A program made the position numbers and the translations under genes. From Psammoneis japonica (taxonomy: Eukaryota), in the NCBI GenBank assembly GCA_008632985.1, contig QPGO01000285.1, forward strand, positions 1 through 64,000: 64,000 nucleotides of DNA, in the 5' to 3' direction. Under the pieces are notes generated by a model. That model worked only from the letters and a program-made list of their open reading frames with translations, did no database searches and was not told the origin of the DNA. Positions 1 to 45,915 of the stretch are shown here, piece by piece; position 1 is the stretch's first letter; each line of letters opens with the position of its first letter.

Positions 1-548
1 AGGGTGCAAAATTGCCAAGGGTGCAAGACAGCCAAGGGCTCAAAATCACAAAGGGTGCAAAATGGCAGCAAAAGGTGCAAAGTCAAAAATGGCGCAAAAT
101 GGCCAAGGGCGCAAAAAACGCCAATGGCACAAAATGACCAAGGGTGCAAGACAGCCAAGGGCTCAAAATCACAAAGGGCGCAAAATGGCGCAATGGGGTG
201 CCAAATCACAAAGGGCACAAAATGGCCAAGGGCGCAAAATGGCCAAGGGCTCAAAATCACAAAGGGTGCAAAATGGCAGCAAAGGGTGCAAAATCACAAA
301 GGGTGCAAAAAGGCCAAAGGTGCAAAATCACAAAGGGTGCAAAATCACAGTGGGCAAAAAATGGCAACAAAGGGTGCAAAATCACAAATGGCACAAAAAG
401 GCCAAGAGCTCAAAATCACAAAGGGCACAAAATGGCCAAGGGCTCAAAATCACAAAGGGTGCAAAATGGTGGCAAAGGGCACAAAATCACAAAGGGTGCA
501 AAATGGTGGCAAAGGGTGCAAAATCACAAAGGGCACAAAATCACAAAG

Positions 549-685
549 GGCGGGTTCCAACCCCAGGCAGGACTTGGTGTGACATTGGCCATGCGAGCTC
601 CGCAGCAAACTTCTGCTGCAATGAAAATGCGAATGATCGCCAACAGGAAAAGAGGCAATTTTGCGAACGCATCTCCTCCTTGGAA
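549..685 (+). mobile_element. MITE family, truncated copy (left end only)
   Basis: GGCGGGTTCCAACCCCAGGCAGGACTTGGTGTGACATTGG matches the left end of the full copies; no right TIR. Confidence 0.75.
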
Positions 686-1010
686 TGGCCAAGGGCGCAA
701 AATCACAAAGGGTGCAAAGTGACAAATGGCGCAAAATGGCAGCAAAGGGTGCAAAATCACAAATGGTGCAAAATCACAAAGGGTGCAAAATGGCCAAGGG
801 CGCAAAATCACAAAGGGCGCAAATTTGCCAAGGGTGCAAGACATCCAAGGGCTCAAAATCACAAAGGGCGCAATGTGGCGGCAAAGGGTGCAAAGTCACA
901 AAGGGCGCGAAATGGCCAAGAGCTCAAAATCACAAAGGGCGCAAAATGGTCAAGGGCTCAAAATCACAACTGGTGCAAAATGGCGGCAAAGGGTGCAAAA
1001 TGGCCAAGGG

Positions 1011-1176
1011 TGAATGAGCGCTGATGTGCTGTCACAAACATGGGCAGCTCATGTGCTGTTGGCGATTGGCCCACTGCCGCTTGTTTGGTGGCCCCGGCAG
1101 CATGACATCTCACAATTCCAGAACTTGTTGACGCTGTCCAACACTCTGTCTTGCCTTGCACCCAATTCTCAGCTGT
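1011..1176 (+). repeat. Truncated copy of the copia-1 LTR, part of a local duplication (~830-1176 vs ~1240-1960)
   Basis: Nearly identical to 1797-1962, including the upstream satellite junction CCAAGGG|TGAATGAGCG. Confidence 0.85.
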
Positions 1177-1327
1177 GGAAAGGGCACAAAATCACAAATG
1201 GCACAAAGTGGCCAAGGGCAAAAAACACAAATGGCACAAAATGACCAATGGCGCAAGACATCCAAGGGCTCAAAATCACAAAGGGCGCAAAATGGCAGCA
1301 AAGGGTGCAAAATCACAAAGGGCGCGA

Positions 1328-1692
1328 GACACGTTCCAGACGCAGGCGGGAATCCGTGTGACATTGGGCCCGCAGAATTCTGCGTGCGAGCTCCGCACTA
1401 AAATCACACGGCAATTAAAATGTCAATGATCGCCAACAGAAAATGAGGCAATTTTGCGAACGCACAAACTTGCCCAGTTGCACTCTTCAGACATTGAAGA
1501 GTGCAGCTGGTGCGTTGTTGTTTCTGTAAATTCGTCACATGAAACATCTGGGGCTTCACAAAACAGCGAGTCTGGACAATTTTTTTAAAATGCCACACGT
1601 AGAAATGTGCATGCGAAACATGCGACGGATGACAAAAATTGTTTGTGTCACACGTCAGCACTGCGAGCTCCCACCCAGGGCTGGAACGCGTC
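1328..1692 (+). mobile_element. MITE (non-autonomous DNA transposon), TIR GAC(A/G)CGTTCCAG...CTGGAACGCGTC, 4-bp TSD
   Basis: Terminal inverted repeats; flanks GCGA / ACGA; an empty-site paralogue (GGGCGCGAAATGG) lies at ~903-915. Confidence 0.85.
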
Positions 1693-2499
1693 ACGAAATG
1701 GCCAAGAGCTCAAAATCGCAAAGGGTGCAAAATGGTCAAGGGCTCAAAATCACAGCCAGTGCAAAATGGCGGCAAAGGGTGCAAAATGGCCAAGGGTGAA
1801 TGAGCGCTGATGTGCTGTCACGAACATGGGCAGTTTGTGTGCTGTTGGCGATTGGCCCACTGCCGCTTGTTTGGTGGCCCCGGCAGCATGACATCTCACA
1901 ATTCCAGAACTTGTTGACGCTGTTCAACACTCTGTCTTGTCTTGCACCCAATTCTCAGCTGTCATGGTGGCATTTGCTTGCACTTTGTCAGAGCCAATGT
2001 GCTGTGATGTTCATTGCCTGGAATGGGCATTGCAAATGGTGCGACGGTGTCATTGCGATAGATTGTTTTTTGCGGCAAAGGCCATGTTGGTCCCGTGGTT
2101 GCTCGCGCAATCGCTGAGTCCTTTGCGCACATCAATGTTCATGGACATGAATGATGCGCTCTTGCAGATCAGAGCTGTGATCCGTCAGACATGATGTCAG
2201 TGGACGGTTGGCCAAGACACACAAACATTCGTGATGAAGACAACACAATGATTCATGTGTTGAGGTCTGTCATTTGACCATGTGCGTTTGGCTGACCAAA
2301 ATGCATTGTCAAATTGTTCAGACACTGTGCATGTGGGCACATGTCTGTTGGAAACCATTGCTGAGGTGTGACACCACCTGCTCGCGGGTTTGCCAAGTGG
2401 AAGCTGCCAAATTGGCATGAGAGCCACACATTTTTCTCACTTTCCTCCACTCACACAAGTGGATGCTCACACGTTGAAACGCGAGTGACTGCTCACACA

Positions 2500-4398
2500 C
2501 CATGGCCGCTGCTGCAGCCTTCACCGCTTGTCTTGTGCATTGTGGACACAGTGCACAGGCGCACACCCACACAGCCGGTCAAGGCTTTGCTGCCATTCAG
2601 GACTTGGAACAGGTCCCTTTGGCAGAGATTGCTGCCGTGACTGAGGGCCCACACAGCCAGCCAAGGCTTTGCTGCCATTCAGGACTTGGAGCAGGTCCCT
2701 TTGGCAGAGATTGCTGCCATGACTGAGGGCATTGTGAAGAGCGTGGATGCCGCCGCTGACCCCCAAGTCTGCTTCCCATGCCTGGCGAATTGCAAGTTCA
2801 AGGCACTGCGCGCATGGATTGACTGCCGCAGAGCCCGGAACCAACAGCCGACTGCTGCTCTCTTTGCTGGCAACGTCATTGGGAAAAGGACGGCACGTCT
2901 CACAGAGTTGGAGCCACTCAAGTCAGCAGACTCGGATGACGAATCGGCTTCCAAGACGGCCGCGGAACTCAAGAATCTGTGTGACTGGCCTGCCTTCCAA
3001 GAGTTGCTGGACGCGTTCCAGCCCTGGGTGGGACTCCGTGTGACATTGGGCCTGCAGAATTCCACGCACAAGCTCCGCAGCACAAGAATTTGATCAATGG
3101 ACACATTTGTCTTCAACATCAAATGAACGGCCAAGTTTGTGGTGCAATTGCACCTCTTGCCACTCAACGTTTTTGCAAATGCACCTGCACTGCACGATTC
3201 TTAAGACATTGCAGAATTGCGCTGCAACAAAACATGTCAAAAGTTTTTGGACGGATCGCTTGACAAGTGCACCGTAAAATGACACAAAATGTCAAAAAAT
3301 CACATGGAATTCTACGTGCGTGACATGCAACGAGATTCAAAAAACTGTCGATGTCACAGCTCAGCAGTGCGAGGTCCCACCTGGACCTGGAACGCGTCAC
3401 TGGAGACCGAACTGTGCCACCACCACAGTGCAGTTGCCGGCACACCCCTCATCCACTCAATTGGGGAGCACGAAGATGTCACTGCCAAAATGTTGGCTGC
3501 CACCTGCACTGCCATTGACGAACACCTCATTGCCACTGCTCGACTTGCAGGAGCTCAGCATGCACAGGATGGGCAACGCCTGCATGACCTCTTGAAGAAG
3601 TCAGTGACAGGGGGGCCCAGATGGGCTTTTGTCAAACCTTCCAATCGCAATCATGATGGTTGCACTGCTTTCTTTGCACTCAAGAGGCAGGCAGAAGGAT
3701 CGGCTGCCGCCACTGCTTGAAAGAACCGTGCTTGTGCACAGATTGCTGCTGCGAAGCACACCGGACGGGGTCAATTTACTTTCAACCAGTGCACTCAACG
3801 CCATCAAAAGGCTCACAACAACTTGTCCGAGCTTGATGAGCCGGCAGCCAAGACCAAGCAGGTCTCTGACTTTCTCAAAGGTGTCTCTGACCCCAGGTTG
3901 GAAACTGGCAAGAGTGCAGTTGACGGAGACCCGACAAAGCCAGTGGATTTTGAGGCATGCCAGCAGTGCATGAAGACTCTGGCAGAGAATGCCAAGAACC
4001 GCAATGCTGACACTCGTGGAATGGCGTCTGTCCAATGCCGCAGCAGCTGGCGTGGAAACCCTGGTGGCAAACACCAACCTAAAAAGGACAAGCCCGGGAT
4101 CAGGGCAGGCTGTCATCCTGTTGAAGAGTGGAGTGCTCTTGACAGTCCTGAGCAAGAGCAAGTCAAGAAGCTCCGCAAGGCCAAGAAAGCCGAGAAGAAA
4201 CGCAAAGCAGCAGCTGCATCCTTGGAGGCTGAGTCGGCCAATGCCGAAACTTGCGCTGTCAAGAAGGTGGCTGTTGCTGAGCCTGAACCCAAACCTGCTG
4301 ACAAACAAAAGGACTCCGAAGAGTCCAGCAAACCTGCTGCCAATGCAGGCACGCAGTTTGGATGCAGCACCCATGAGAAACCTCAGAAGGAGGAATGA
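2500..4398 (+). pseudogene. copia-1 gag remnant (split by the MITE at 3010-3398; ~80-bp tandem duplication at ~2576-2730)
   Basis: Segments WPAFQELL..., GTPLIHSIGEHE, FFALKRQAEG, KQVSDFLKGVSDPRLE resemble diatom copia gag; in-frame TGA at ~3718. Confidence 0.7.
3010..3398 (+). mobile_element. MITE copy inserted in copia-1 gag
   Basis: GACGCGTTCCAG...CTGGAACGCGTC perfect 12-bp TIR core; flanks GCTG / ACTG. Confidence 0.9.
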
Positions 4399-4479
4399 AT
4401 GGCAGCGCCAGCACTGAAAGGCATGGAGCCGACTGTTGCCAAACCTGCTGGCACCACACGTTGTTCATCCAGGCAATTC

Positions 4480-6890
4480 TCAAAGGATGTGCACATCTCT
4501 TTGTCATTTTCTGGACATTCAGATGGCAAAGCAACCAATGATTTGGACTCACACACTGACACGTGTGCTGTTGGATCCAATTTTGCAATGTGCTCTGACG
4601 TCATCACCCCTGAGATGGGAGCCTTCTGCTGATGCCATGGCACAAAAGGAGGAAGCGCACGCACATGCTGGTGTGCGCCAGCGATCATTGAAGTCTGATG
4701 GACAGGCAACAATGATGAATGTGACCAGGTGCATTGCTTCAATTCATTCACATCAAATGTCTCATCATGAAGAGAACGTCATTGTGGACACTGACGACGA
4801 CAATTCTCTGCATCACCGCCTGGTTGCTCAGGTGAATGTCTCCCACAACGACATTGAGGGAGACGGGCTGCACGACCGGCATGACCCAGATGTCCACCCG
4901 GACTGCAGAAATGGGTGCATGCACTGTCAACCTTGAGTTGTGCATCGACTGTCACACCCGAGATGCTCTCCAAGAGGTGGAACATTGGCCTGACGGCCGC
5001 TGAGAACACCCTTGGAGTGATGACCCAGGCAGGGGTCTGCAATGTCTGCACACCATCAGAGCGGAAAGTCTGGAAGAAAGCCCCCTCTGGCCAGATGTTT
5101 TTGAAGGTCAAATCGATGTGTGGCAAGACAGGAGGAAGTGCACTTGCCAACGGAAGAGGGTGTGACAGGTTCTGTCCTTGGAAAAGGAAACAGGACCACC
5201 CGAATGCCGTCATGTCATTTGTGCATGACGTTGGTGCACCGCAAGTCCTTGTGTCGGATGGCGCGCCGGAAATGGCAGAAGGCCAGACCAAGGACATTTG
5301 CAAGGAACACAGGATGCACCAGGAGGTGTCCACCCCATGCAGCCCCTGGCAGAACCTGGCCGAGGCATCCATTCCTGAGTTGAAGAAGAGAAAAAAAACT
5401 CGAAATCCACTTTGCCGCTGCCTCGCTGCTGCCCACACCAACACCGACCACAGCAGACCCACACCCCCCAGTGCCCACAAAGGGCAGCAGGGACAATTTA
5501 AACACCGTTGAATGTTGTCAGAAAGACAGTGCCATTGGCGCATTGTCCGAAGGCAGCACCGTTAACACATCGTCAGAAAGAGGCTGTTTGTTTTAAGTCA
5601 GAATGGCAGCTGACCGGATGCTTGTTGCATGGCAACCACAGTTGCTGTGCCTCAAAGAATGGACAAGCCCAGCCACACCACTTGGAAGACACCAAAACAA
5701 ACGCTGCAGAAAAACCAAACATGTGTCTGTCTTCAAAGACAACATGCTTGAAGAGATGTGAGAGAGATTCCTGGGATGAAAAAACACCCAAGAAAGTCCA
5801 ACACGGACCCCAACGAAGGAAAAGGAAATGATGTTCAGAATTGTCGGATGAAATTTCCGTCATGCATGGAATTGTGCAGAAATTGTGTGCTGAAGTTGCA
5901 ACATCGAAGAGCATGAAGAAGCAACACCGAGACTTGGAACTGCGAACCACTTGGAAGACTTGTGACAACCCACTTTGGAACACCGTAGAACATCCATCAC
6001 ATGTTGCAGCACATTGGAGAGAAAACTCAAAGGAAGCATGTTGGTGAGAAGAACAAGAGGATGAACCTCACATGGTTGTCGACTTGAAATTCTGGCCAAA
6101 TGCGTGGAATTGCACACGAAACTTGTGCTGAAATGGCTGACTTGAAAATTGCTGAATCGTGCAGAATTTAATGCAGAAAACATGCTGACATTGGGAAAGA
6201 AGTGCAAAGAGATGCAACACCATGGCGGCGCTGCTCCCCCGGATGCAGACAAAACAGAGTGTCCCCTCCGATGTCTTTTGGTTTCTCTGTCATTGGCACA
6301 ACTGCCTGACGCCCCAAAGTGCCCGAGGAGGTTGGCACACCACCACACTCTCACACAGGACAATCCCACGGGCGCTTGCGTGGAATTGTGAGTTGAAGAA
6401 GAGAGCCCGCATGACTCCACGCCGGACTGGCACTCACAGGTGACTTTGGCCCCAAAGTGCCAAATGGGCATGTGATGTCCGATGCATGATTGCAACTGTC
6501 ATGTCAGACATGGGAGGACGAGTCCCAGAAGAAGAGGTGACAGGTTCAACACCCAATGTTTCGTCCCTCTCTCTCTCTTTGATTGGCATCAACCTGTCCA
6601 CTGTTGCATGCCTGTGGTGGAGTTCCCACATGAGAAGAAGTGCATCGGCCGTTGGCTCAGAGTGGCTGACAACTGCACTGACAATGTGGCATTTGTTGTC
6701 CTGCCCGAATCAGGCAGACCCATCATTCGGAAAGATGCACGGGCCATGCCGGAGGATGACCTTAAAACTGTGGCGATCCAAACAGATCTTGCATCAGTTG
6801 ATCAGGCTTTGATCAAACGGCTCAACATCCTGGAACAGGGCGCCAATGCTGACTTCCCTGAACTCCCTGACAACTTCATGGACAAATGAT
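4480..6890 (+). pseudogene. copia-1 protease + integrase remnant (interrupted at 5392-6388)
   Basis: LDSHTDTCAVGSN (aspartic protease motif), VTPEMLSKRWNIGL, VGAPQVLVSDGAPE, PCSPWQNLAEASI, FPHEKKCIGRWL. Confidence 0.8.
5392..6388. mobile_element. Unclassified ~1-kb insertion flanked by a 16-bp direct repeat
   Basis: TGAGTTGAAGAAGAGA at 5376-5391 and 6389-6404; integrase homology stops and resumes at these repeats. Confidence 0.65.
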
Positions 6891-6899
6891 GCGATGCTG

Positions 6900-8600
6900 T
6901 TGAACCCGTGGAACCTGACTCTTCCAAACCAGAAGCTGATGAGTGTGCCCCGGAGGGGCTGGATGAACACCTCACAGCTCAAGTCATGTTGCCACGAGGA
7001 GGCAAGCTGACTCATGCCAGGGTTGTTGCACGCAAACGAGATGGCGGCGGGGCTCCCATTGGTGCTGGGAATGCCTCACAGCTCAAGTCATGTTGCCACG
7101 AGGAGGCAAGCTGACTCAAGCCAGGGTTGTTGCATGCAAACAAGATGGCGGCGGGGCTCCCGTTGGCGCTGGGAATGACAACCCTGTCCCAGACTCGAGG
7201 ACATGCAATGTGGAGTTTCCTGATGGATCCACTGATTCCTGTGCTGCTGACGCAATTGCAAAGAACCCATTTGCTCAGACAGACTCTGAAGGGAATGCCT
7301 GCCAGGTTGTGAAGGAGACAGTCGATCACCGATGTGATGCCCGTGCCGCAACGGCTGATGACGGGCACACAATGACTGAGACTGGCAGGCGTGCTCCCAG
7401 GAGGATGACGGCAGACTGGGACCCACAAGTCAAATGGAAGGATGGGACTGCATCCTGGGCTCCCCTCAAAGATTTGAAGGAATCCAATCTAGTCGAGGTT
7501 GCTGAGCACGCTGTGGCAAACGAGGCAGCCAGCGAACCAGCTGTTGACTGGTGGGTCCGAGACATCTTGCATCGCAGGTCAAGGATCCTGAAGAAAGTCA
7601 AGTCGCGTCACTGGAAACGCACGCACAAGCTCGGAATTGAACTCCCAAAATCTGTTGAGGAAGCTGTGGAAACAGACAACAGAGTGAGGACTGACTTCAG
7701 GTTCAAGGCTGTTGAGGAGGAAATGCGCAACATCATGCCTGCATTTGAGTTCAGCGATGATGACACTGCACCGGTCGGGTGCAAACACATTGATTGTCAT
7801 GTGATCTTTGACATCAAGAGTGCCCTCCAACGCAAAGCAAGGTTCGTGGCCAGAGGCCATCAAACCAATCCACCCAAGGAATTGACTTGTTCCAGTGTGG
7901 TGTCGCGTGACAGCACTGGGATGGCATTCACTGTGGCAGCTCTGAATTGCCTGGAGGTCCTGAGTGCAGACGTTCAGAGCACCCACTTGAACGCACACAC
8001 TGAGGAAAAGTGTCATGCTGCTGCTGGCCTGGAATTTGGGAAGCACAACAAGGGAAGGCCGGCGATTGTTGTCCGAGACTTGTGTGGTCTCAAGTCTTCA
8101 GGTGCAAGATTTGGGGAACACATGGCAGCCACTTTGCGCGACACTGGGTTCATGTCTGCATGTGAGCTGCGGTTGAGCCGGACGGCTTCAAGCACTGGGA
8201 GTGCATGCTTGTTTGCGTGGACGACTTGTTGTGCATCTCCCATGAACCTCAGAAGGTCGTGGATCATGTGAGCTCCAGGTGCACACTCAAGGATGGAAGT
8301 GTCTGCGAGACGGAAGAGCACTTGGGCGCCCAGATTAGAAAGCACCAGTTGTCTGAATCGGACGGCGAGACATGCTGGGCTGTGTCCTCTGACCTTTGTG
8401 TCAAAAGGGCATTGGCTGATGTTGAGTTGGAGCTCAAGAAAACTGACAGGCGCCTTCTGATGAAGGCGTCAACGCCCTTGAGCTTGGGACACAGGCCTGA
8501 ACTGGATGGCTCACCTGAGGTGAACACCAAAACTGCCAGCTGCTGCCAAGGCCTCATTTGTGTGCTGCGATGGGCAGTTGAGCCAGGGCCCACTTGGCAG
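6900..8600 (+). pseudogene. copia-1 pol: pre-RT region + reverse transcriptase remnant (RNase H apparently deleted)
   Basis: VKWKDGTASWAPLKDLKES, KSRHWKRTHKLGIELPKSV, RKARFVARGH, TCSSVVSRDS, ADVQSTHLNA, LCGLKSSGA, LVCVDDLLCIS (YVDD read as CVDD); ~104-bp tandem duplication at ~6970-7175. Confidence 0.92.
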
Positions 8601-9321
8601 TGCCAGGAGTTGTCCTGTGGTGAGTCCCAAAAGGGGACAAACCGAGCAGGTTTGCCCCGCAGGTGCATCTTTTCCCACCCCCAGAATGAAAATGCCGCCC
8701 TGGGACGGGGCAGCATCAGGTTGCATTTGTCCATCAATCTGGCCCAAGCGGAGCTGGCATCAATTCAAGGGGGCTGAATGAATCCTGACATGCTGTCACG
8801 AACATGGGCAGTTTGTGTGCTGTTGGCAATTGGTCCACTGTCTCTCATTTGGTGGCCCTGGCAGCGCAGCATCTCACAATTCTGGAACCTGTTGATGCTG
8901 CTCAACACTCTGTCTGGTCTTGCACCCAACCATTGGCTGTCATGGCAGAATTCACTCAAGGGCACAAAATCACAAAGGGCGCAAAATCACAAAGGGCACA
9001 AAATGGCCAAGGGCGCAAAATCACAAAGGGCAAAAAATCACAAAGGGCACAAAATGACCAAGGGCACAAGACAGCCAAGGGCTCAAAATCACAAAGGGCA
9101 CAAAATGGTGGCAAAAATCACAAATGGCACAAGATGGCCAAGAGCTCAAAATCACAAAGGGCGCAAAATGGACAAGGGCGCAAAATGGTGGCAAAGGGTG
9201 CAAAATGGTGGCAAAGGGCACAAAATTGCAAAGGGTGCAAAATGATGGCAAAGGGTGCAAAATCACAAAGGGTGCAAAATGGCCAAGGGCGCACAACCAC
9301 AAAGGGTGCAAAATCACAAAG

Positions 9322-9717
9322 GACAGGTTCCAGCCCCAGGTGGGACTCGGTGTGACATTGGGCCCGCTGAATTCTGTGCTTGAGCTCCACAGCAAATTTG
9401 TGCTGCAATGAAAATGTGAATGATCACCAACAGAAAAAGAGGCAATTTTGCGAGCACATCTCCTCTTTCATGCTTGGAGCACATCATTGGCAGTTGCCGG
9501 GGTGTGTTCTGCAGACATTGAAGAACATGCCCAGCGCATTTTCATTCTCACAAATGTCGAAAATGGAGAGCCTCTGGCTTTGCAAAACAGGGAGCATGAA
9601 ACAATTTTGAAGAGTTCAGCAAGTGGAAATGCACGTGCACGACATGCAACACGATCCAAAAAACCATTGATGTCACAGTGCAGCAGCACGAGGTCCCACC
9701 TGGAGCTGGAGCACATC
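9322..9717 (+). mobile_element. MITE copy
   Basis: GACAGGTTCCAGCCCCAGGTGGGAC...GTCCCACCTGGAGCTGGAGCACATC; flanks AAAG / AAAT. Confidence 0.85.
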
Positions 9718-10659
9718 AAATGGCGCAAAATGGTGGCAAAGGGTGCAAAATCACAAAATGGCACAAAATCACAAAGGGTGCAAAATTGCAAAGGGTGCAA
9801 GACAGCCAAGGGCTCAAAACTGCAAAGGGCGCAAAATGGCGGCAGAGGGGGCAAAGTCCCAAAGGGCGCAAAATGGCCAAGGGTGCAAAGTCCCAAAGGG
9901 CGCAAAATGGCGGCAAAGGGTGCAAAATCACAAATGGCGCAAAATGGACAAGAGCTCAAAATCACAAAGGGGGCAAAATGGCTGAGGGCTCAAAGTCACA
10001 AAGGGTGCAAAATGGCAGAGCAAAGGGTGCAAAATGGCCAAGGGCACAAAATCAAAAAGGGCTCAAAATGGTGGCAAAGGGTGCAAAATGACGTGGGGCG
10101 CAAAATCACAAAGGGTGCAAAATGGCAGCAAAGGGTGCAAAATGACAAAGGGCACAAAATCAAAAAGGGCTCAAAATGGCGGCAAAGGGTGCAAAATGAC
10201 AAAGGGTGCAAAATGGCGGCAAAGTGTGCATGATGACAAAGGGCACAACATCACAAATGGCACAAAGTGGCCAAGGGCGCAAAATCACACATGGCACAAA
10301 ATGACCAAGGGCGCAAGACAGCCAAGGGCTCAAAACCACAAATGGCGCAAAATGGCCAAGGGCGCAAAATGACAAAGGGTGCAAAATGGCGGCAAAGGGC
10401 ACAAAATGGCCAAGGGTGCAAAATCACAAAGGGTGCAAAATGGCCAAGGGCACAAAATCACAAAATGCGCAAAATCACAAAGGGCACAAAATGACCAAGG
10501 GCTTGAGATGGCCAAGGGCGCAAAATTGCAAAGGGTGCAAAATGGCAGCAAAGGGCGCAAAATCACAATGGGCAAAAAATGGCCAAGGGTGCAAAATCAC
10601 AAAGGGCGCAAAATGGCGGCAAACGGTGCAAAATCACAAAGGGTGCAAAATGACAAAGG

Positions 10660-11217: not shown

Positions 11218-11723
11218 AAGGGTGCAAAATCACAAAGGGCGCAAAATGGCAGCAAAGGGTGCAAAATCACAAAGGGCACAAAGTGGCCGCAAGGGCGCAA
11301 GATGGTCAAGGGTGCAAAATCACAAAGGGCACAAAATGGTGGCAAAGGGTGCAAAATCACAAAGGGCGCAAAATGGCCAAAGCCACAAAATCACAAAGGG
11401 CGCCAAAATCACAAAGGGCACAAAATGACCAAGGGCTTGTTCAAGTTGGTGCAGTGTGGGTGCTTTTGTCATGGAGAAAGTTTGTGAAATCTCAAAAGTG
11501 GTTGTTGTGTGAGTTTGAGGATGAGTTTCCTGTGCGCGGCAATGGTTTGAAATGAAATGAATGATGAGTTGTGACAGGTTCACAACTGGGTGAAATTGTG
11601 GAATTGCGGGGGTGATTGTCGCGCAAATGGAGCCATTTTGAAAGGCAAATGTTTGATGCATGTTGAGCAGAGCTGCAAACAAGATGCATGTGCAATGCTT
11701 GCAGATGAAATGAGTGTGCTTTT

Positions 11724-35350: not shown

Positions 35351-36599
35351 CAAGCCAATCCTTTTTGGATCAGCGCACCAGCACTTTTGCCACTGTTGCA
35401 GATGCCGCCAAATCTCCAGCCGGATCTGAGCCAAAAATGCTGCTGTTTCCGAGCAAAAAAATTCCATCTTTCAAAATCAATCTTGTCTGGGGTGGCTGCT
35501 TGAGGAAGAGTGCCACATGGCAAACAATGTTCATCAAAAGCAGCACCCAAATGCAGATTCATCACTCACCCTTTCATTCCAGCCAATGCTGCATCTTGAC
35601 TTTGCACCAAGATGGAAGATGGGAAATGGGGGGCATGGTGCCACAAATGAAGCCAACCATGGAATTTTTTCATGCATGACAGGCTTGTGATCTGCATCTT
35701 CAATGCCACAAAAATGCAACAAGACAGTGCACCTTGCACTCATTTTTGCTGTTGCTGCACTCTTCTCCTCTCTTCTTTGCTTCTCTCTTGTTGTTGCAGC
35801 AGCAACGGGGTTGCTTCGCTCCCCCTCTCCCCCCCTCTTCTTCCGTCAGCACCCCCCCTGTTTTCCCTGGTGGTTGAAGGGTTGACATCTGAGGCCCGCA
35901 GAAAAGGCCTTCAGTCACATGTCACTGAGCCCCACCATCTCATGGCATGCACGCACGCGCCTTGATTGGAAGGCCCCACTCCAGATTGAAGTTGACGCTT
36001 GCTTGTTGGAAAGACAACATTTTTGTTCATTCTCAATTTGCAGATTAGAATGTCAGGCATTTGTTGTGCCACGACACATTTCATTTAATTGACATTTGTT
36101 GACTTGTGCGCCAAAATGCCAAGTCACACGGCACTGTCATTCCCTCAACTGAGGACAGTTGCATTTTGTTCCAGCTGAAAAATGTTCATTTTCATGTTGA
36201 ACAAGGCACTTTTGCCAAAATTTCTGCATCTCCGTCTTCATGATGGATGTTGACAATTCTGCAAAATTTTCCACCCTTTTCTGCTCTCCCCCAAAACCCC
36301 CTCCTCTCCGCCAAATCACAATCTTTCATTTGCGCCGTTCCCCCGAGCGATCCTGTTTGGGGCATTTGTCCCTTCTGCTTGTGATCCACAGGTCCAATCC
36401 CCCATGGTTTTGGCGAATCTGCGCAGAGCCGTGAAAGCAGCATGACAACAAGTCCGTGGTTTCTGCGTCCTCTGTTCATGCCGCGATGGCCCATGGCAGT
36501 GTTCCTCTCCTGCTGTTGCGACCATGGCCCATTGCAAAGTCATGCCCAAGCAAAAGCAATGTCTCTCTTCTGGCTCTGAATCATTCGGGGATGCCACCG

Positions 36600-39500
36600 A
36601 GTGTGCCACTCACCCATCGCACCACTTTGTCACGTCTCCAGACCATGACGGCTTGCTTGATGACATCATTCAACATCATCCAACGTGGAGGCAAACCTCT
36701 CTGATGACTTCAATCTCAGCTCTGATGACTGCTCCAGTGGCAACGACTCGTCTGCTCAAGGCAATGATCACGCCAGTGCACCGTCTGCATCCAGAGACCT
36801 TGACGGTTGTGCCAGTGATCTTTCTTTTCCCAACAAAGACGATGTGGGTGCCGATTCTTTAGACGGAAGCGATGTCTCTGTTCTTGACGACCATGCCAAA
36901 GTGTGCACAAATGGTGTTGACGGTGCCTGCATGACAAAGCCCCAATTTAAAGAAATCATCGAGACGCAGCACTGCCGCCAGAAGTTCATCGAGACTCACA
37001 ACTGGACACCCTCCGCTGACCTCATTGCCCTGCCCTTCATTTGTCACAACTGCCAGAATTGAGCCTCCCATTTCTTCATGGAAGTGTTGATGGTCAACAA
37101 CATGGTTGTTGCCCATTCTCTTGGCCACAAAGATGGCTTTCATTGTGCAAAAAGCCGTGGCTGGATTTGTTTTTGTCGCAAAGATGGGAGGCATGTTCTG
37201 GAGTGCCACAAGCTGGCCGAAACCATTTCCAATCTTGCCCGATTTGGAAACATCTCCATGCAATCATTGATGATTTACACGAGATGACAGTGAGCGAACA
37301 AATTGGCAACGACCCATGCTTCCTTTGGCTCCACAGCTTCAGATCCAAGTTGGATTTTTTTGCGCAATGCCTGAGCATCGCTGCCACCACAATGGACTGT
37401 TGCTTTCTCCCTCATGTTGATGAAGAGTTCGGCAATTTTTGATGCTGGTCGACCATCATTTTTTCCAGCTGCGAAAAGAGGAAACAGTTCGTTCTGTTTT
37501 GCAACAATGTTTTGACCCTGATGAGCATGGGACAGAAGTTGAAGGATGGGAAGGTTGCCAAGAAGATCCTTGCCGATCATCTGGAATGTGTCAAGGTTTG
37601 CGTCGACACTCATGCCATGGCGAAAGGCATGGCACAAAAACACCAAGAGTTGGTTGAGCGTGAGCTCCATTCCACCTTCAAGTGTTCCTACAAGGACATG
37701 AATCGTCTCAAGTTCCGCAACCTGGCAATTGTGCGATCGCGTGTCCACGATCTCACGCATCCACACCTTTCCCGTGTGGCAAAGGCAAAGTTTGTTTCTT
37801 CCACCAAGAGGAGGAAGAAGAGCAAGGATTCCTCCAGTGTGTCTGCTGGTTCTCTGGCACCTCTGCCCCCTTCATCCAAGAAAGAAACCAACCGGAATCC
37901 TGTTGCTCATCCAACCGGCACCATGGCCAATGCCCCACCATCCGCCAAATGCCACATGAGTGCACTGGCCTCCCAGTTGCAACCTTCGGCTGAAGACAAA
38001 GTCGAGGCGTTGTTGGACGGAGAGTTGTCGTCGTCGGGTGAATCATCAACTGAAGACCACCCCATCCAGAATGTTCCCGACGCAGGTGCTGTGGGTCCAT
38101 CCACGGGAGGAGTCACTTCTTTGGCATCTCCATCAAAGCCAAGCACATTGGCCAGCACCACAACTTCCTCATCAATCGACGATCGGTTCCCCCGTGGTCA
38201 TTGTCGCCGCTTTGTGTCCCTTTCTGATGTCTCTGGGCATGCTCCTTGTGTTTGCATCATTTGTGATCCAGGTGACGATGACGATGACAACAAGCAATCT
38301 GCCAATTGTGAGTTGAACCTGCATCATTCTCCAGCTGACTGTCACTTGCTCGATGATCTACGACATCATCTCCACTCCTTTGTGATGACGCAACCACTTC
38401 CTTCTGCTGCAAATCATGGCCGGGAGCTGGTGGTTGTCCCACCCAGAGCTCAACGTGTTCAGGATGATGCCGCCATTTTGCACTTGTCCTCCCGTCTTTG
38501 GCAGAAACACTTTGGATCTCTCCAAGTTGATGTTGGCATGATTGCCCATTTTGTGCTTGAACATGGCCATTCCAATCCCAATCGTGATGGGAAGATCATG
38601 CGCTGCAAGAAAAACAACGTAGATCGGTCCAAGCAGCCAGACAAATGGGACTGGATCGATTTTGGCTGCTGTGGTTGGTCTCACAATGTGCTCAAGAATG
38701 GCGGGAAAGTCCCATCACTGCAAGTCGGTTTTGGAATTTTTGAGAAAGAAAAAAACGTCGTCATCCGCAATCAGATTAAGTCCATGCTTGCGGATGTGCA
38801 CGATTCCATGCAGAGGTGCCATGGTGAGCTGGAGACAGAGCACTTTGGCAATCCTTGACCCCACAACAACACCACAAGAACTGCAATGTGTGGGGCCGCG
38901 CTTCACACTGGGCTGGGTTGCAAAGCAGCAAGGAATGAGCTTGGCACTGTCCAAGTTAAGACAATGCCTGATGGTGTGCAGATTCATCCAGACAAGTTGG
39001 GGAATGTCGTTTCTGTCAAGTTCCTTGCCAACAGCTGGAAACGCACGGGTGAACATTTTGACCAGCATCTGACGTCATTGCCGTTGAAGACAATGATGCT
39101 GAAGCATGTCACAGCCACAAATCGCGCATGCAAGGAGTTCTCTTTGTCGCGCAAGGGTCCTCATGGTCCACCAATGGATTTGAACCACCGCCATCCCAAG
39201 AACATGTTTCTCGATGATCATTGCCCACACAAGGAAAAGGCACTCGACAAGGCTGGTTCGACTGTCATGGACAGGTTGGAGTTTCCCACCTCCTGCATTT
39301 GGGATTTGTGGTTGTCAATGGGGATCACCATCCTGCTCTGACTCTGAGATGTGCTCGGAATCCACAAGGTTGTCAAGATTGCAATCATGGCTTCTTGTCA
39401 GACTGGATTCCACTGGTTCTTCCACATCGGCATGGAGCACAGGGACGAGTTGACTGAACTCAGTTCTGATCCTGCACTTGTCTGCTGTCAACTGGGCATG

Positions 39501-40770
39501 AAGCTGTTTGGCACTGCCGCTGGAGACGCAGGAGTTGCTCCACGCCGTCTGAACCCCAGTGGCTGCAGTTTTGTTTTCTGCTTTGAAAGAACTGGAGTGG
39601 CCGGGGAAGACCTGGGTGATTTGGAAAATCAAGATGCAGCAGCAGAGGAAAACAAATGTTCTCAATCCCCAAATGATTTTGGCTCAGATGTTGACAAGTT
39701 GGCGGCACAACAAGAATTGAGTTGTCCTGAGGATGAGAGAGGCATCCCTCCCAATGGTGCCAACAAACACTGTGACTCTGAATCACCGGACTTTGACGAC
39801 ATGACGGAATCACCTCAAGAGAGCCCAGATCTCTCAGCGCAACCAAAGAAAACAAAGGTGTTGTTTTTGTGCATGACACAGACAAATGACATTGATTCTC
39901 TGTCATTCACAAATGTGCTTGACGACATCAACGACGACTTGTTCAGTGGAAATTCCAAACTGAGATCCGACGTGACAAGGATGCTTGCCTGTTGTGACAC
40001 GGTGCTTGATGCAACCAACTGCACCATTGATTGTGAACTTTGCACAGCTTCTCTGAGCAACGGTCACAACGCCCATCACATCAACTGCAGCGCATGCAGT
40101 CCTGCATTTTGCAATGAGGTCATCACAAAGTTCGGAAGCGACTTTGAGGAAAATCAACTTGGATTGCTTTTGGCCACAAAAGGGTTGGTTGAGCGACAGA
40201 TTCAACCCACGCTTCTTCTTCGGCAGGACATTGCCTGAACTGTCAAATGCAATGAAAGTTGGCTGGCGGTGCCATCAGCATCCTTTTTGATGTTGAGACA
40301 TTTCTTTCCCATGTCTTGCACGAGGAGTCCATTGTTGAAATGCACCGCGCCCTTTTTCCGAAGGATGTGCGCGTCCTGTTGCACGAACCGCACCATTGCA
40401 GCTGTTTCGATGATGAACAGTGCAAACAAAAGCTGAGTCTAGATCATGCACACCAGGTGAACAAATGCCTGGCCGGTGTTGCAAGCAGCAAAGTTGGCCA
40501 GTCGGTTCCAGAACCTTTTTGCCTTCAAGCCGAAGAGGTTTGGAAGTGGCTGAGCAACGAAAACCACCACATCAATCTTTGCAAATGGACAGTGCCACTT
40601 CAGCTGGCATTCATTGGACACAGAAATGGCACAAAACACGTTGAGATGGCAATCGCAGTGACAACCAATGAAAAGTTGGAAAGATGGTCAGACACAAAAA
40701 CACGTGAGGCAACGAGCTGGTTCCTCACAAAGAGCAGCTCCCCGCCAATGATTGAGCCACATTGATGCAT
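36600..40770 (+). pseudogene. Large degraded multi-domain gene (>1,300 codons) of probable transposon origin
   Basis: Chain of long same-strand ORFs (36685-37062, 37078-37287, 37512-38858, 38886-39341, 39351-40238, 40259-40765) joined across TGA stops and small frameshifts; Cys clusters; methyltransferase-like segment near 40150-40290. Confidence 0.55.
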
Positions 40771-40989
40771 GTCGAGTCAAACGATCGTCCCGTTGACATG
40801 CCTCATCAAGTCACGGTTGCAGCTTTTTGCAGGTGGAGAACAGACGTGTTGCGGGGCATGCAAATGCACACCTGTGTTGTCAAAGGCTGCCAATGAGACA
40901 GATGGAAGACAAGGCAGGAGATCATGCCTTCGTCCATCCAGAGTCAAATCCAAATTTATGTTGAAGTCGTGCAACCAAAACTCCATTGC

Positions 40990-42651
40990 GCAATGATCGT
41001 TTCGACGCTCCTCAGGGTGCATCATGTGCGGATGCGAGAGAAGAGCCTCTGCAAGCTTCTGTTGCCACTTGAGGCAGCCATCCAATGGACTGTCCTTGCT
41101 GAATGCTGCTGCAGCAGAGCCGGCCCATCCAAGTGCTGGCTTGTTGAGACAGGGAACAATCTCCACATTGACTGGAGAACAAGAAAGACCAAGCTGATTG
41201 GTTTGGCAGGATGTGTTTGCAACATTGTTGGCGGGACACATGCAGAAGTGATGCACTCAACCGGCGCCACCACCATTGGATGATTTCCGTCCACAGACAA
41301 AGTCTTGTGACTTCTGGCCACCAAACATTGGCCCTTGCACAAGTCGGACACGCATGCACCGGCAAACACCACCCAAGTTTGCCATCATGAGGGGAGGCTC
41401 TGCCTGCAATGCCTTCAAATCTTCCAAGAGAAAAGACAACATGTCATGGTGAGCCTGCATGTTTGATGAACACGGGGGCTTGCCCGATTGCATGTCTTTG
41501 TTCACATTCCCGTTCTCATCAAGTGCAGCAACCGCACCATCCTTGTCTGTGCTGGGCATGAACCCCAGGTGATGCCAGGCGCAATCATGCTCACGCACAT
41601 GCCTCTTGGCAAGAAGAATGCAGAACAACCAGGTAATGAGGGGACACCTTTGACAGGCATCAGTCCCTGTCTGATCAGCGCACGAGGCGATTGGCAACAG
41701 CAAGTCCTTCTTGCAGTCAAAGTCACTGGGGAGGGCATCGCATGTGTCAGAGCACCATTTGTTGGACATGATCTCACCAAGATCACAGTCGTTGATGGGA
41801 ACGCACTTGTGGAAACGTTCCTGCAGGGACTTGTTCTCATTGAGATTGTGCTCGTTGTCAAACATCGAGTGGGCGAGCAAATCTCTCAACATGTCCAGCA
41901 CGCGGAAGCAAGTGACTTCCTGCCCACCAATGAGGCGAGTGTCAGGCTGGGGCAGAGAAACCTTCTCATGGAGTTTCTTTGCCAACAAGTCACGCCCAAG
42001 ACACTGGGAACAATCAAATTTCCGCTTCTTGCTGAACCGGCGCAACAGGGTGAGCAACTGTCCGCAGAATTTATGAGTGGCGCCGGAATTGTCACACAGT
42101 GCAATCAGCTCCAACGAGGCCTCCTCCAACAGTGCAAAGGTTGGCGGATCAGGTGCATCCCCGTGCAAGGCATCGGAGTTGGCATTGCTGGTGGTGGGGA
42201 GGACGCCAGGGGGTGGATCCTGGGGCAAAATGGATTCTTCACATGCACCCACCGGGGAAGAATGCAAAGAACCGGCAGGAGGAGTGCCAGGGAACATTTT
42301 GTAAAGAGAGGAATCATCATTGTCACCCACGTTGTCATCACAATCCTCTTCCTCCTCCTCCTCCTCCTCCTCAGATTCTTCATTGGGGGGGGGGGGGGGG
42401 GGGGGGGCGTGGGCTGCGGATTGTCCATTTGCGGGTGGGAAACTGTGTGAGTCATCATCTCCATTGAGGCCCGTGCTGGGATTTAGTGCTTTGTCATTCT
42501 CAGGTGCAGAAACGGATGACTGACAAGCAATTTGCTGCTTTCGGAACACAAGAACGGCGGCTTGCAACATCTGGCACAATCGAGTTGTGGCAGATGCACT
42601 GGGGTGGGCTGCATTGTGCAAGCGGTGGTTGCGACGGTGGGAAACAGGCAT
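40990..42651 (-). pseudogene. Plavaka-type (CMC/KDZ-related) transposase remnant, 3' truncated
   Basis: LLLPIASCADQTGTD..QRCPL..WLF.....RHVRE...AWHHLGFMP, HHDMLSFLLEDL..LQ, GGQKSQDFVCGRK..NGGGAG*.HHFCMC match my recollection of the Plavaka transposase core, with Y->C/H and R->stop changes. Confidence 0.75.
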
Positions 42652-43599
42652 GCCAAGCTAAGAGGGCCATTGGAAATGAGAAACGCAAAGATGCAGGACA
42701 AAACAATTGGGTGCTTGTTCACAACCATTTGTTGGCGTGCGTGTGTTGGATTGTTTTTTGAATCAAATTGTTGAGTGTGCACCCTGCTGACTTTTGAATG
42801 GGAGACACTTGGTGTGGTGGCAATGGCCGTTGGAGAGTTGGCCACAGGGAGGCAATTGGACATGAGGGCATGCACACATTTGGAAATTAAAGACGGCATT
42901 TTTGAATTGGGGAGAGGATCTGTTCAAATTTCAGTGCAAATGTCCAGCCAAACAAAGAAACATTGGTGAAAGACACTGTTCAGGTGAGCAGAAATTTGTG
43001 CTTGGAAATGGAGAAGGATTGCCGTCACCCACACGTGGTCCACAAGACTGGCCACATCCATCAACATGCTTGCAGCAAGTGCACATGAGCACACACCAGA
43101 AATGAAAACACAGCGGCAGCAGCAAGGACAATGGCGCATGTGGAGCAGGAGCTGAGCTCAACCGAGTGGATGGCGGATGAGGCAAAGGTGGTGGAAGACA
43201 CAGCGAAGGTGAGAGATCATGCAAAGGAAACATTGTTCCTCAGTGTGACACTCACATTTGATGAAAAGGAAATGGAGGAAATGGGCATGCTCTGCTGAGA
43301 TTATGAACAGAACTGCGGCCCCAAGATGATGCATGGCCTGCTGAACGAATTGCCCGAGGCAGAGCAAAAAACATGCCTGCACCACCTGTGGCTTGCGATG
43401 AAACAAAAAAAGATGCATCAGGAGTGGCCAGCAATTGAGAGGTTGAATGCATGCCAGGCGCAGCAGGACAAGTTCCACGGTGAGTGATGACGGAGGGTGA
43501 AACGAGGACAGCAAATGTGATTGCTGACGTCGCGTTTCCTGCCACAAATGAAGCTCTTTGTGCATGCTGCAATGAGAACAATTGCATCTTGCCATTGCC

Positions 43600-44500
43600 G
43601 GAAAGATTCCAAGATCGCTTGGGAAACCCGGTTTTGCAGATGGTGTTCTACGACCACATGCTGCGTCCGATTGTCAGAGACACACGCTGGAAAGAGTGCA
43701 TTTCCAGGAACAAGAGGATGGGCACAGCGTGCGCCGAGGCGTTTGCCCACATGCTCCTCAAGAACAACTGCGATCCATGGCATGCCAAGTGCAAGAGCCA
43801 AAACAAGGACAGGACTTTGATGACGGACTGCGATGTGGAGTTGGCTGATGATGGAGGAGGCAAGGACTTGTGCGAGATGATCATGCCAGACATCGTGACA
43901 GCCGAAGAGAGGGACGGCCAGGACCAGAGCAAGTTTGTGCCACTCCAGAAAGATCCACAAGAAGAAGAGATGTTGCAGGAGGAAGGTCCATCAGTGCAAG
44001 AACTGAAGCAGAAGTTTGAGAACACAAGGGAAGAGTCCGTCACAAAACGTGACACCATGGCCAAGAAGACAAGAGAAGAGCCAAATGCTGCACTGCAAGT
44101 GACGGCTCTGAAGAAGGCTGCAGAAGTGCTCGTTGCCATCCAAAATGATGTGGGTGCATCCAGCAAAAAGAGAAAGGTTGTCAGGAACCTCGAGCATTTC
44201 ATGGCGGCAAAGCCAAAAAACTTGGACAGAAACGTGGGACCGAGGAAGTGCAAGACACTGAGGAAGAGCAAAGGGCGGTCACCAAAGGCTGACAAGTTCT
44301 TTGTTGACATGGTCAAGGAGATCAAGCAAGATGTTGCAAGCAGACACCTGGGCCGATGGGAAGAGCTCCCACAGAGCCGTTGCGACCAAGCAAGATCAAC
44401 AGGCGGCAGAAGAAGCGTGGGACGGCTCGGACAATGAAGATGACAAACAGGTCAGTTGTGCTGAAGTGTGCGAACTGGAGTTGGTGGTGGTTTGGTCAAG
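43600..44500 (+). pseudogene. Transposon accessory ORF divergent from the Plavaka transposase
   Basis: FYDHMLRPIV...WK...EAFAHMLLKNNC..W followed by a coiled, basic tail; head-to-head with the transposase. Confidence 0.5.
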
Positions 44501-45229
44501 AGCAACTCAGCAGCCATGAATTGCAATTGCAGCCATTTGAAGTCAATTGCAGCAGAGACATGCAACAAACGGATGGGACCACGGAAAACACTGTTTGAAC
44601 ACACCAGTCAACCCATTGACTTCAACCGTAAAAATTGGAAACAAATCAAAACACAGCATTCGATCATCACCCAGTCGGCACCAACAAGAAAAGTCAAATC
44701 CAACAAAGCAGCTGGTTTGGCATCATCGACTGATTGGGTGGCACCCCACTTGCTGGGGTTGACAACTGTTTTGGAAAGTCCACGGACATTTGTTGGTTGG
44801 CGTGGACATTCATTTGTTTTCAATCATGGCCATTTGTGGCAAACAGTCGTGACTCGCATTGAATCGCTTTGGTTCATCACAAGTGAGCACATGTGCGGGC
44901 TGTCACGTGTTTTGTCACCAACAATGTCCGTTGGCATGACCACAAGACAATTCATGGAAACGGGCCTCTGACGGAGTCAGCCATGAGAAAAATGCCATGA
45001 CCATCATAGAAAATCTGGGACACCCGGCATTTTGTTGTGTTTCAAGACATGCCTGTTTGCACGAGACTCCTTTTGCAAGAACCACATGTCTTTGAGACAT
45101 TCGATGTTTGTCGAAGACAATTTTCGAGAGACACACACATTTGATGCACACACAATCAATGTTTGAAAATTCAGTGCATGCTCTTTCAATGCCAGCACAC
45201 ATTTCTGCGATGCGATTTAATTTGGCGAC

Positions 45230-45388
45230 TCTCCATTTGTCGCAGAGACAAATCTTTTTTTTGTCTCCACTTTCTGTCGGCAGAGACAAATTTTGTTAGA
45301 GACAGCCGGAGACAGATGGAGACAAGACAAATGGAGACGGAGACAAAACAGATGGAGACAACAGAGACAAATCGAAATGTGCACAGTG
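45230..45388. repeat. Subterminal GAGACA(AA) direct/inverted repeats ending in CACAGTG (probable CACTG-type transposon end)
   Basis: About 9 GAGAA/GAGACA-type motifs plus inverted TTTGTCTC, then CAGTG. Confidence 0.55.
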
Positions 45389-45592
45389 CACACACAGCAC
45401 CCACACAGATGCTGCGCCATGGAGCACATGACGATCTGCCTCCAGAGAGCAGAGAGAGAGAGCTGGCAGGCCTGCCGTGCTGCAGAGCAAAGGCTGGGTG
45501 TCGCAAGACCTTGATCCGCTCTCCATTTGGCACTGAGCCGTGATGCACGTTGCTTCAAAATGGCGCTGACATGACAGTGGGAACTGCTCCAG

Positions 45593-45915
45593 GACGTGCT
45601 CCAGTCCCAGGTGACGCACAAAATGACAATCGATTTTGAGTGCAATTTGTGTGTCTTTTAGTGTGTGCAGCATTTTTGCACAAAATGCTCAGATGGATTT
45701 TGACTTTCACAGGCTTCCAGAGCATGAACATTTGAGCAGTTTTTTGAGGGGTGTTCAAGTCCTCATGGGGCGTGCATCACAAACTTCCTCAGCAGACTCA
45801 ATGCTGATTGTGCGTCAGTGGATGTGTGCTGAGATTTCTTTGCAGGCAGAAAACCCACCAAGCAGAATCGTAGAAAACATTGTTCAGGTGACATCCAAAT
45901 GACGGCAATGTTTTC
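45593..45915. mobile_element. Partial inverted copy of the 10660-11217 element, at the domain boundary
   Basis: GACGTGCTCCAGTCCCAGGTGACGCACAAAATGACAATC... is the reverse complement of ~10895-11217. Confidence 0.85.

Follow-up and report, generated by a model that had tools for sequence, protein, structure and literature searches.

We describe a 64,000-nt window of Psammoneis japonica contig QPGO01000285.1, which contains one block of repeats poor in the dinucleotide TpA and one boundary at which this block gives way to genes. The block holds satellite arrays, two copia-type long terminal repeat (LTR) retrotransposons, short dispersed repeats and the remnant of a DNA transposase. Judged from sequence, it appears to be the product of a TpA-specific A:T->G:C process on DNA that acts within the repeat block after insertion, on both strands, near saturation and with a preference for RTAY (R, purine; Y, pyrimidine). 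The features of the window are listed below (o/e, observed/expected ratio; ORF, open reading frame), followed where applicable by the means of detection.

1-45914, no strand: TpA-erased repeat block of at least 45.9 kb, reaching past the left end of the window (TA o/e 0.04, CG 0.44, TG 1.79, CA 1.62)
1-1323, plus strand: 17-bp satellite array, with more arrays at 8958-9322, 9717-10660, 11218-11436 and 15862-16166 (Tandem Repeats Finder)
1794-8945, plus strand: copia-type LTR retrotransposon 1 (copia-1), with LTRs at 1794-1967 and 8772-8945 and coding remnants at 2767-8756 (self-BLAST, LTR alignment, tblastn with diatom copia homologues)
4885-5508 and 6967-8268, plus strand: copia-1 domains, a weak rve and RVT_2, respectively (Pfam)
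3010-3398, plus strand: dispersed repeat of ~390 bp nested in the copia-1 gag, with other copies at 12405-12796 and 23654-24048 (self-BLAST, 68-89% identity; gap in the gag match)
9318-9720, plus strand: dispersed repeat of ~400 bp, with other copies at 11721-12126 (minus strand), 14851-15247 and 1335-1692 (self-BLAST)
20050-21265, no strand: 422-bp tandem duplication plus an inverted partial copy (Tandem Repeats Finder, self-BLAST)
23049-23653, plus strand: 22-bp satellite array, with more arrays at 24047-24751 and 31656-32517 (Tandem Repeats Finder)
24792-31653, plus strand: copia-type LTR retrotransposon 2 (copia-2), with LTRs at 24792-25040 and 31408-31653 and coding remnants at 28354-31337 (self-BLAST, LTR alignment, tblastn)
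37443-38855, plus strand: ORF of an unclassified multi-copy repeat, with one homologue (P0391, 46% identity) that has no Pfam family
40918-42657, minus strand: Plavaka-like DNA transposase remnant, with 313 homologues (closest P0241, 69% identity)
45593-45914, minus strand: dispersed repeat at the block edge, with another copy at 10898-11217 (self-BLAST)
45915-64000, no strand: gene flank of normal composition encoding a Pro/Thr-rich repeat protein, DNA polymerase alpha, an FtsJ-like methyltransferase and a zf-met2 protein (TA o/e 0.52-0.77, CG ~1; Pfam)

TpA was binned at 2 kb across the window, and 200 mononucleotide shuffles served as the null. Each bin from 1 to 46,000 has a TpA o/e of 0.00-0.07 (0-9 sites), and the bins from 46,001 on have values of 0.52-0.77 (50-107 sites). 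The whole block contains 101 TA, compared with 2,832±41 in the shuffles (minimum of the 200, 2,721) and with 1,810 expected at the o/e of the flank; overall, TpA o/e is 0.04 in the block and 0.64 in the flanking genes. An earlier note on this DNA (the original prediction) had reported that TpA is nearly absent over ~46 kb while the adjoining genes are normal in TpA and tyrosine, and both observations are confirmed here, with flank ORFs carrying 2.4-3.8% Tyr. TG and CA are in excess (o/e 1.79 and 1.62 in the block versus 1.10 and 1.09 in the flank), and CpG is reduced to an o/e of 0.44 in exactly the same block, versus 0.99 in the flank. ApA is not depleted (1.30 in the block, 1.17 in the flank), and the GC content of the block is ~0.50, with no AT enrichment. 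Measured against the flank expectation, the combined loss of TA and CG (3,293) is matched by a combined gain of TG and CA (3,456). This balance and the CpG depletion together indicate that two processes feed TG and CA in roughly equal shares. The compositional account in the original prediction was right as to the loss of TpA, but it missed the parallel CpG depletion and, with it, about half of the TG/CA gain.

The stop codons of the block are skewed in the same manner. Counted in six frames, there are 2,138 TGA, 109 TAA and 56 TAG, and 247 stop-to-stop frames of at least 90 aa start before 46,000. With TAA and TAG almost gone, long spurious ORFs fill the block. These counts bear out the proposal that the transposons are hit by missense rather than nonsense mutation: Tyr codons and TAA/TAG stops have been removed, and no stops have been created.

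The elements themselves are barely recognizable by profile. A Pfam scan covered 183 ORFs from the block, including 24 long ones and 150 of the 247 listed ORFs of at least 90 aa. At E <=0.01, three of the 183 match, each short of its curated cut-off: one matches rve and one RVT_2, both weakly, and one matches Fer4_5, probably by chance. Transposon domains are thus matched by two. A search with Rfam gave no match anywhere in the window. The nearest named relatives of the copia element are from Fragilaria and Fistulifera. The Plavaka label rests on sub-threshold Pfam matches (23 bits, cut-off 26.3) found in two of five homologues scanned. The dispersed repeats of 390-400 bp make up two families, one of them nested in copia-1, and are candidate miniature inverted-repeat transposable elements. 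The nested repeat at 3010-3398 is as free of TA as copia-1, its host element, which implies that erasure went on after nested insertions or acted on them again. The 422-bp tandem duplication contains a single N, at 21078, which may be an unresolved base or an assembly join.

Conserved tyrosines, whose codons begin with TA, point to the ancestral state. A conserved-Tyr column was defined as one with Tyr in at least 70% of at least 10 homologues; columns were drawn from three transposon families, and those of the Plavaka-like remnant were taken from pairwise BLASTP. None of the 33 such columns retains Tyr in the window: 13 read Cys (TGY), 15 read His (CAY) and five read something else, although other conserved columns are retained at 55-85%. 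The 17 columns of copia-1 read 8 Cys, 8 His and 1 Gln, and the 13 of copia-2 read 6 His, 3 Cys and 4 other residues. All 131 aligned homologues (131 of 131) have the Tyr of the reverse transcriptase YxDD motif (YVDD), which is Cys in the window. Nine Tyr of P0241 aligned with the Plavaka-like remnant are now 7 Cys, 1 His and 1 Leu, and the four Tyr of P0391 aligned with the unclassified ORF at 37443-38855 are now Cys, His, His and His. After Tyr, the worst-kept residues are Arg (CGN; 47%) and Ile (ATA among its codons; 46%), as fits the loss of CpG and TpA. The peptide strings from which the original prediction argued are all present (TCSSVV at 7885, THLNA at 7981, LCGL at 8080, CVDD at 8214, LHGL at 30131, TCGSEF at 31006 and CADQT at 41668), and its broader statement that invariant Tyr reads Cys or His in unrelated transposon families is upheld by 28 of the 33 columns.

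Relatives of the copia lineage were also sought in metagenomes, where 80 loci were kept of 476 relatives found. These environmental relatives have a TA o/e of 0.46-0.90 (median 0.66), and none has a 1-kb window below 0.2; they lean towards intact copies because they were found via conserved peptide patterns. The idea that these families might be free of TpA by nature is contradicted by the normal TA content of these 80 relatives and by the conserved Tyr of the homologues. A metagenome scan with the mutated copia ORF produced 175 pattern matches and no relatives, and a scan of viral_contigs likewise found no relative.

Repeat copies within the block allow the changes to be followed in place. 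We aligned 16 non-satellite paralogue pairs (4,507 aligned nt), including both LTR pairs. The most common double change is CA<>TG, with 128 occurrences; double transitions of the seven remaining kinds number 16, 12, 9, 4, 1, 1 and 0, and the kind that is never seen is CG<>TA. Such CA<>TG doubles are the outcome of independent hits on one ancestral YpR palindrome, one copy having become TG and the other CA. CpG is kept in both copies at 65 places and changed in one copy (CG<>TG/CA) at 129, and from these CpG states we estimate that ~32 of the 128 doubles derive from CpG and ~96 from TpA. Outside YpR steps, 132 transitions stand against 196 transversions, with no transition excess. The changes thus show the bias towards a TpA context that had been predicted, with 128 CA<>TG doubles versus at most 16 of any other kind. 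In one pair of 93.7% identity (20475-20694 and 21265-21045), there are four CA<>TG doubles, five CpG changes and no other substitutions.

The LTR pairs are of particular value, since an element integrates with two LTRs of the same sequence. The two pairs carry 5 and 7 CA<>TG doubles, and these differences exclude both pre-integration RNA editing and a natively TA-free element. In a 584-nt tandem pair, background divergence is ~2.5%, ~96% of the inferred TA sites have been lost and ~35% of CpG has been lost per copy, which corresponds to a calculated ~3.3 hits per TA site versus ~0.0125 per ordinary site. By calculation, the loss of TpA outpaces ordinary substitution by at least two orders of magnitude and is ~7x faster than the decay of CpG beside it. 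The repeats are, or were, cytosine-methylated, and CpG decay accounts for about half of the TG/CA excess and for none of the TA loss. A strand-symmetric A:T->G:C process at TpA on repeat DNA, as originally proposed, is therefore retained and can be placed after insertion on the basis of the LTR and paralogue differences and the Tyr->Cys/His changes; its claim on the TG/CA gain has to be cut by about half in favor of CpG decay.

The few TA sites that remain are not a random sample. Sorted by context, the 101 residual sites comprise 0 RTAY, 37 RTAR/YTAY and 64 YTAR, a distribution that departs from that of the flank (chi-square p = 7e-23). Between 538 and 709 RTAY would be expected at the density of the flank or of the environmental copia relatives. 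Survival is 3.5-3.9% for RTAR/YTAY and 17-18% for YTAR. If the residual sites had been regenerated at random from TG and CA after a finished burst, 24% of them should be RTAY, and the probability of finding 0 of 101 is 1e-12. The residual TA thus reflects a four-base preference, either because survivors were left according to context or because new TA is still being removed. We dropped a separate argument for continuing activity from the number of regenerated TA, as the estimated ~146 is too near the 101 seen.

The right edge of the block is sharp. TA is back at 45917, 45964, 45984 and 46003 and then continues at normal density, so that the switch lies no more than ~50 bp from position 45,914, where the repeat ends, and the process spreads at most ~50 bp into unique DNA. 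The repeat at this edge (45593-45914) and its copy at 10898-11217 are 15 CA<>TG doubles apart.

Beyond the edge, the genes agree with a diatom host. The named best matches of DNA polymerase alpha are all diatoms (Seminavis 66%, Attheya 64%, Cyclotella 63%; the closest match overall is at 72%), and these, together with the copia relatives in Fragilaria and Fistulifera, fit the diatom assignment made earlier. In a protein atlas, the polymerase ORF meets only generic family B polymerase clusters. Its catalytic subunit (51960-56038, plus strand) lies in two overlapping frames, 51960-54866 and 54815-56038, and their junction is probably an intron. At 46594-49137 (minus strand), there is a long Pro/Thr/Ser-rich ORF of short tandem repeats (PTPPPTPPP and KPPSPSP runs) with high depth in the run X2, which is transcript-like; by composition, its product looks like a secreted, wall- or mucin-like protein. 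Contigs of X2 lack two stretches of 102-103 nt within 50759-50987 that have CT..AC ends (GT..AG on the minus strand). The two skipped stretches would fit short introns in a gene on the minus strand around 50730-51308. X2 has zero depth in 17 of 18 bins of 34,001-46,006, which is not informative on silence, and a further run, X3, contributed no matching contigs.

Read data speak to the accuracy of the assembled sequence. In the public run X1, 0.65 of the sampled words of 41,001-51,000 are present. Contigs of X1 cover 30 of 30 bins of 34,001-54,000 at 99-100% identity, with a single-copy k-mer depth of ~50 in the genes and in parts of the block. Over 1,221 nt of the block, in which the window carries 1 TA and 278 TG/CA, three X1 contigs at single-copy depth show 14 differences. 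The 40 best-supported X1 differences in the block are mostly CpG transitions, and only three of the 40 create TA by themselves. In the comparison of X1 with the repeat copies, transitions make up 895 of 1,084 listed places. Contigs of X1, which is possibly the source sample, thus agree with the TA-free sequence, for which a check in raw reads had been suggested.

That the genome harbors a real, targeted TpA->TpG/CpA process is, in our assessment, highly probable. As the best overall explanation, we favor, with moderate confidence, context-specific TpA hypermutation of silenced repeats, most naturally through enzymatic deamination of adenine. In this account, TpA in the nuclear DNA of silenced repeats becomes TpG, or CpA if the hit falls on the opposite strand. 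Satellites and short dispersed repeats are affected along with the LTR retrotransposons and the DNA transposon. The process acts once an element is in place, on either strand independently at each site and to near saturation, with a preference for RTAY, with YTAR most spared, and with a stop within ~50 bp of the last repeat. Alongside it, ordinary CpG decay of the 5-methylcytosine (5mC) type removes about half of CpG, so that both palindromic YpR steps funnel into TG/CA. The outcome is permanent inactivation, with every conserved Tyr lost, including that of YxDD, and with neither AT enrichment nor new stops. The comparisons above show these steps, whereas the chemistry is inferred: adenine at 5'-TA in DNA may be deaminated to hypoxanthine, and the enzyme may be a nucleic-acid deaminase that is brought to silenced or repeated DNA. 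The system would then be of the kind already proposed for the chlorarachniophyte Bigelowiella natans. An adenine deaminase as the agent is plausible, if slightly short of an even prospect, and whether the process evolved as a defence or is a by-product appears to us evenly balanced. Whatever the agent, it is clear that the proteins are dead and their frames deceptively open, as all Tyr and many Ile, Leu and Val codons have been changed.

Several points weigh against this explanation. Its support comes from one window and one boundary. The choice of strand is independent between neighboring sites, with 51 switches in 114 neighbor pairs, and no strand-coordinated runs of the sort that would mark processive single-strand deamination were found, nor long runs of Cys or His along the genes. 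Single-strand DNA deaminases usually leave strand-coordinated clusters. The RTAY preference is unlike that of TadA/ADAT, which favor a pyrimidine at -2, or ADAR, which favors G at +1. The stretch at 34.0-35.4 kb, which is at single-copy depth in X1, is as TA-free as the multi-copy stretches, and the trigger may therefore be something other than copy number itself. As X1 may be the source sample of the assembly, its contigs provide agreement rather than full independence. Current activity is read solely from the context bias of the residual TA, because no de novo event was seen. The CpG decay, finally, implies that the block is or was modified DNA and thereby leaves a route driven by modification open.

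Such a route is the main rival, although we consider it unlikely. It holds that thymine at TpA of silenced DNA is modified on both strands (to 5-hydroxymethyluracil [5hmU], a base-J-like form or another hypermodification), that mispairing or mis-repair then yields T->C, and that the mutations, in analogy to the 5mC-driven decay of CpG, are a side effect of epigenetic marking and not of an editing defence. Like CpG, TpA is a palindrome, both decay in the same block, and independence of strand from site to site is what lesions at symmetric marks would be expected to give; moreover, T->C and A->G on the opposite strand share one sequence signature. Both 5hmU in dinoflagellates and base J in kinetoplastid telomeres favor TpA contexts, but we know of no such modification in diatoms. 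A loss of TpA ~7x that of the methyl-CpG beside it is also extreme for spontaneous mispairing, and the authors of the preprint on B. natans, in the part of it available, favor deamination, though without proof (Mettrop et al., bioRxiv 10.64898/2026.01.13.699255). Error-prone repair is a weaker contender, which we judge quite improbable. Here, repair of deaminated 5mC would recruit a Pol-eta-like polymerase, whose A->G errors at WA motifs (W, A or T) would erode TpA near CpG. Errors of this type are known from phase 2 of antibody hypermutation. The shared block of CpG decay and TpA loss would be accounted for, as would A:T->G:C changes at an A preceded by T. ApA, which is the other half of the WA motif, is nevertheless undepleted, transitions outside YpR are not raised, and saturation of at least 96% with total erasure of RTAY far exceeds the error bias of a polymerase; in B. 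natans, the hypermutable regions are described in the preprint as lacking a GC->AT excess (10.64898/2026.01.13.699255).

The remaining alternatives dispute that DNA was mutated in place. A sequencing, basecalling or polishing artefact, in which a modified base of heterochromatin is misread at what is truly TA, would agree with the sharp boundary if this delimits a domain of modified DNA, and the possible identity of X1 with the source sample lends it some room. X1 contigs, with the depth and identity expected of accurate reads, repeat the TA-free sequence, however, and a misread palindrome would not yield a stable, copy-specific TG or CA that differs between paralogues and LTRs. The CpG and background substitutions further mark the elements as genuinely old and degraded, to the point that Pfam barely detects them, and the same Tyr->Cys/His pattern is seen in other public proteins (P0092 and P0099, below); we hold an artefact to be very improbable. 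Still less credit is due to ADAR-like A-to-I hyperediting of transposon transcripts that became fixed by reverse transcription and reintegration. A U before the edited A is typical of ADAR, according to the Discussion of the preprint (10.64898/2026.01.13.699255), and both copia elements are retroelements. Yet LTRs that had one template at integration differ by CA<>TG doubles, the satellites, the DNA transposon and the short non-coding repeats are equally erased, and both strands are hit equally (13 Cys, 15 His). The least probable account, to the point of being negligible, is that these families are natively poor in TA or that selection disfavors TA, with no hypermutation at all. Only the depletion itself speaks for it, and it is opposed by the replacement of Tyr at 33 of 33 conserved columns, the normal TA of relatives, the CA<>TG differences at homologous sites and the equal effect on non-coding satellites.

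Traces of a similar kind were seen among public homologues of the transposon proteins. P0092 (336 aa) has no Tyr at all, and its seven conserved-Tyr columns read 2 Cys, 3 His and 2 Phe. The 11 columns of P0099 (619 aa) read 3 Tyr, 4 His, 3 Cys and 1 Phe, as of a partly erased copy, and the two columns of P0277 (391 aa) read Cys and His. Control homologues keep their Tyr (P0001, 13 of 14; P0010, 17 of 19; P0242, 7 of 9; P0243, 8 of 9). By their sequences, P0092, P0099 and P0277, which are copia-like or Plavaka-like, may mark the same process in other organisms or may be other copies from the same organism. We tentatively hypothesize that diatoms and chlorarachniophytes share a dedicated genome defence, guided by homology, small RNA or chromatin, that employs a natural DNA adenine deaminase preferring RTAY; such 'A-type RIP' (RIP, repeat-induced point mutation) would remove all TpA from silenced selfish DNA and be widespread across the stramenopiles, alveolates and Rhizaria (SAR), and P0092, P0099 and P0277 would be its footprints in further organisms.

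If the hypermutation proposed here is real, TpA-directed hypermutation extends from one rhizarian alga to diatoms, a major and experimentally tractable group of phytoplankton, and a wider distribution would suggest that eukaryotes have a defence, either old or recurrent, that is the mirror image of fungal RIP in its chemistry. The block is a naturally saturated substrate, which yields a testable motif (RTAY >> YTAR) and a ranking of rates relative to methyl-CpG decay. Should the agent be a natural DNA adenine deaminase, it would be of direct interest for base editing. There are also two pitfalls for annotation, in that erased transposons escape profile searches and TA-free DNA throws up long false ORFs that may contaminate gene sets.

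Among known systems, fungal RIP, as described in the portions of the literature available, resembles the present case in the irreversible transition hypermutation of repeats in one dinucleotide context, with sharp edges at repeat ends and inactivation of transposons. It differs in that RIP turns CpA into TpA and makes DNA rich in AT and in stops, whereas the present process destroys TpA and costs stops, with GC content still at ~0.50. The RIP signature of C:G->T:A changes in TpA-rich DNA is accordingly absent from the block (TpA o/e 0.04, CpA o/e 1.62). As for a duplication trigger like that of RIP, the edge coincides with a repeat end, yet erasure is just as strong where the block is at single-copy depth. 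CpG decay through 5mC has affected the same block (CG o/e 0.44, 129 CG<>TG/CA differences) and likewise ends in TG/CA, but it cannot remove TpA and has been ~7x slower here than the loss of TpA. In the diatom Phaeodactylum, loss of DNMT5a is reported to remove DNA methylation and to derepress young transposons, and the same article, in the part available, describes the RID-related DNMT4, of unassigned function, as widespread in diatoms (PMC9998398). Methylation of diatom transposons by DNMT5a fits the CpG decay seen here and does not explain the TA loss. APOBEC and ADAR footprints in retroelements, to judge from the accessible part of one account (PMC4866542), share with our case the clusters of context-specific, deaminase-type transitions in transposons; those footprints are limited to retroelements and to one strand and date from reverse transcription or earlier, whereas the changes here are post-integration, affect both strands and include satellites and a DNA transposon.

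The closest parallel is that of B. natans. According to the available part of the preprint, 231 of 302 nuclear point mutations in mutation-accumulation lines fell in two integrated viral regions, and 230 of these 231 were A>G or T>C, all 230 at TpA; the hypermutable regions mutated at ~1000x the background rate, in only some of the lines (10.64898/2026.01.13.699255). In the genome, windows poor in TpA and rich in CpA+TpG form 124 clusters, and reverse transcriptase and DDE domains are enriched among the low-TpA coding sequences; as the agent, an ADAT2-like DNA adenine deaminase is proposed, though not proven (10.64898/2026.01.13.699255). The text of the preprint, as far as it was available, makes no mention of diatoms, of CpG (0 occurrences) or of the wider sequence context (10.64898/2026.01.13.699255). 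Our literature search found no report of TpA hypermutation in diatoms, and this preprint was the sole relevant precedent in it; the original prediction, which knew of no such mechanism in diatoms, is in line with this, but outside diatoms TpA-only A>G/T>C change has been shown in B. natans.

Set against that partial text, the two cases agree in that TpA becomes TpG or CpA according to strand, the direction here being taken from homologues rather than from new mutations. In both, the rate lies orders of magnitude above background and the footprint is TpA-poor and CpA+TpG-rich; the restriction to selfish or foreign DNA beside normally evolving genes, as in B. natans, is seen here at one boundary. 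They differ in host, a diatom versus a rhizarian on a different branch of the supergroup, and in targets, which are transposons and satellites here and a single-copy giant-virus insert and a virophage there. De novo events were shown in B. natans, whereas events are inferred here. Saturation is far deeper in the present block (o/e 0.04, versus a Rho of 0.45 for their viral region), and the CpG decay and the RTAY>YTAR motif are described in our case and not in theirs. The P. japonica block is therefore not categorically new; it is a much more saturated case of a signature known from one 2026 preprint, now found in a diatom, to which a sequence motif and a link with CpG decay have been added.

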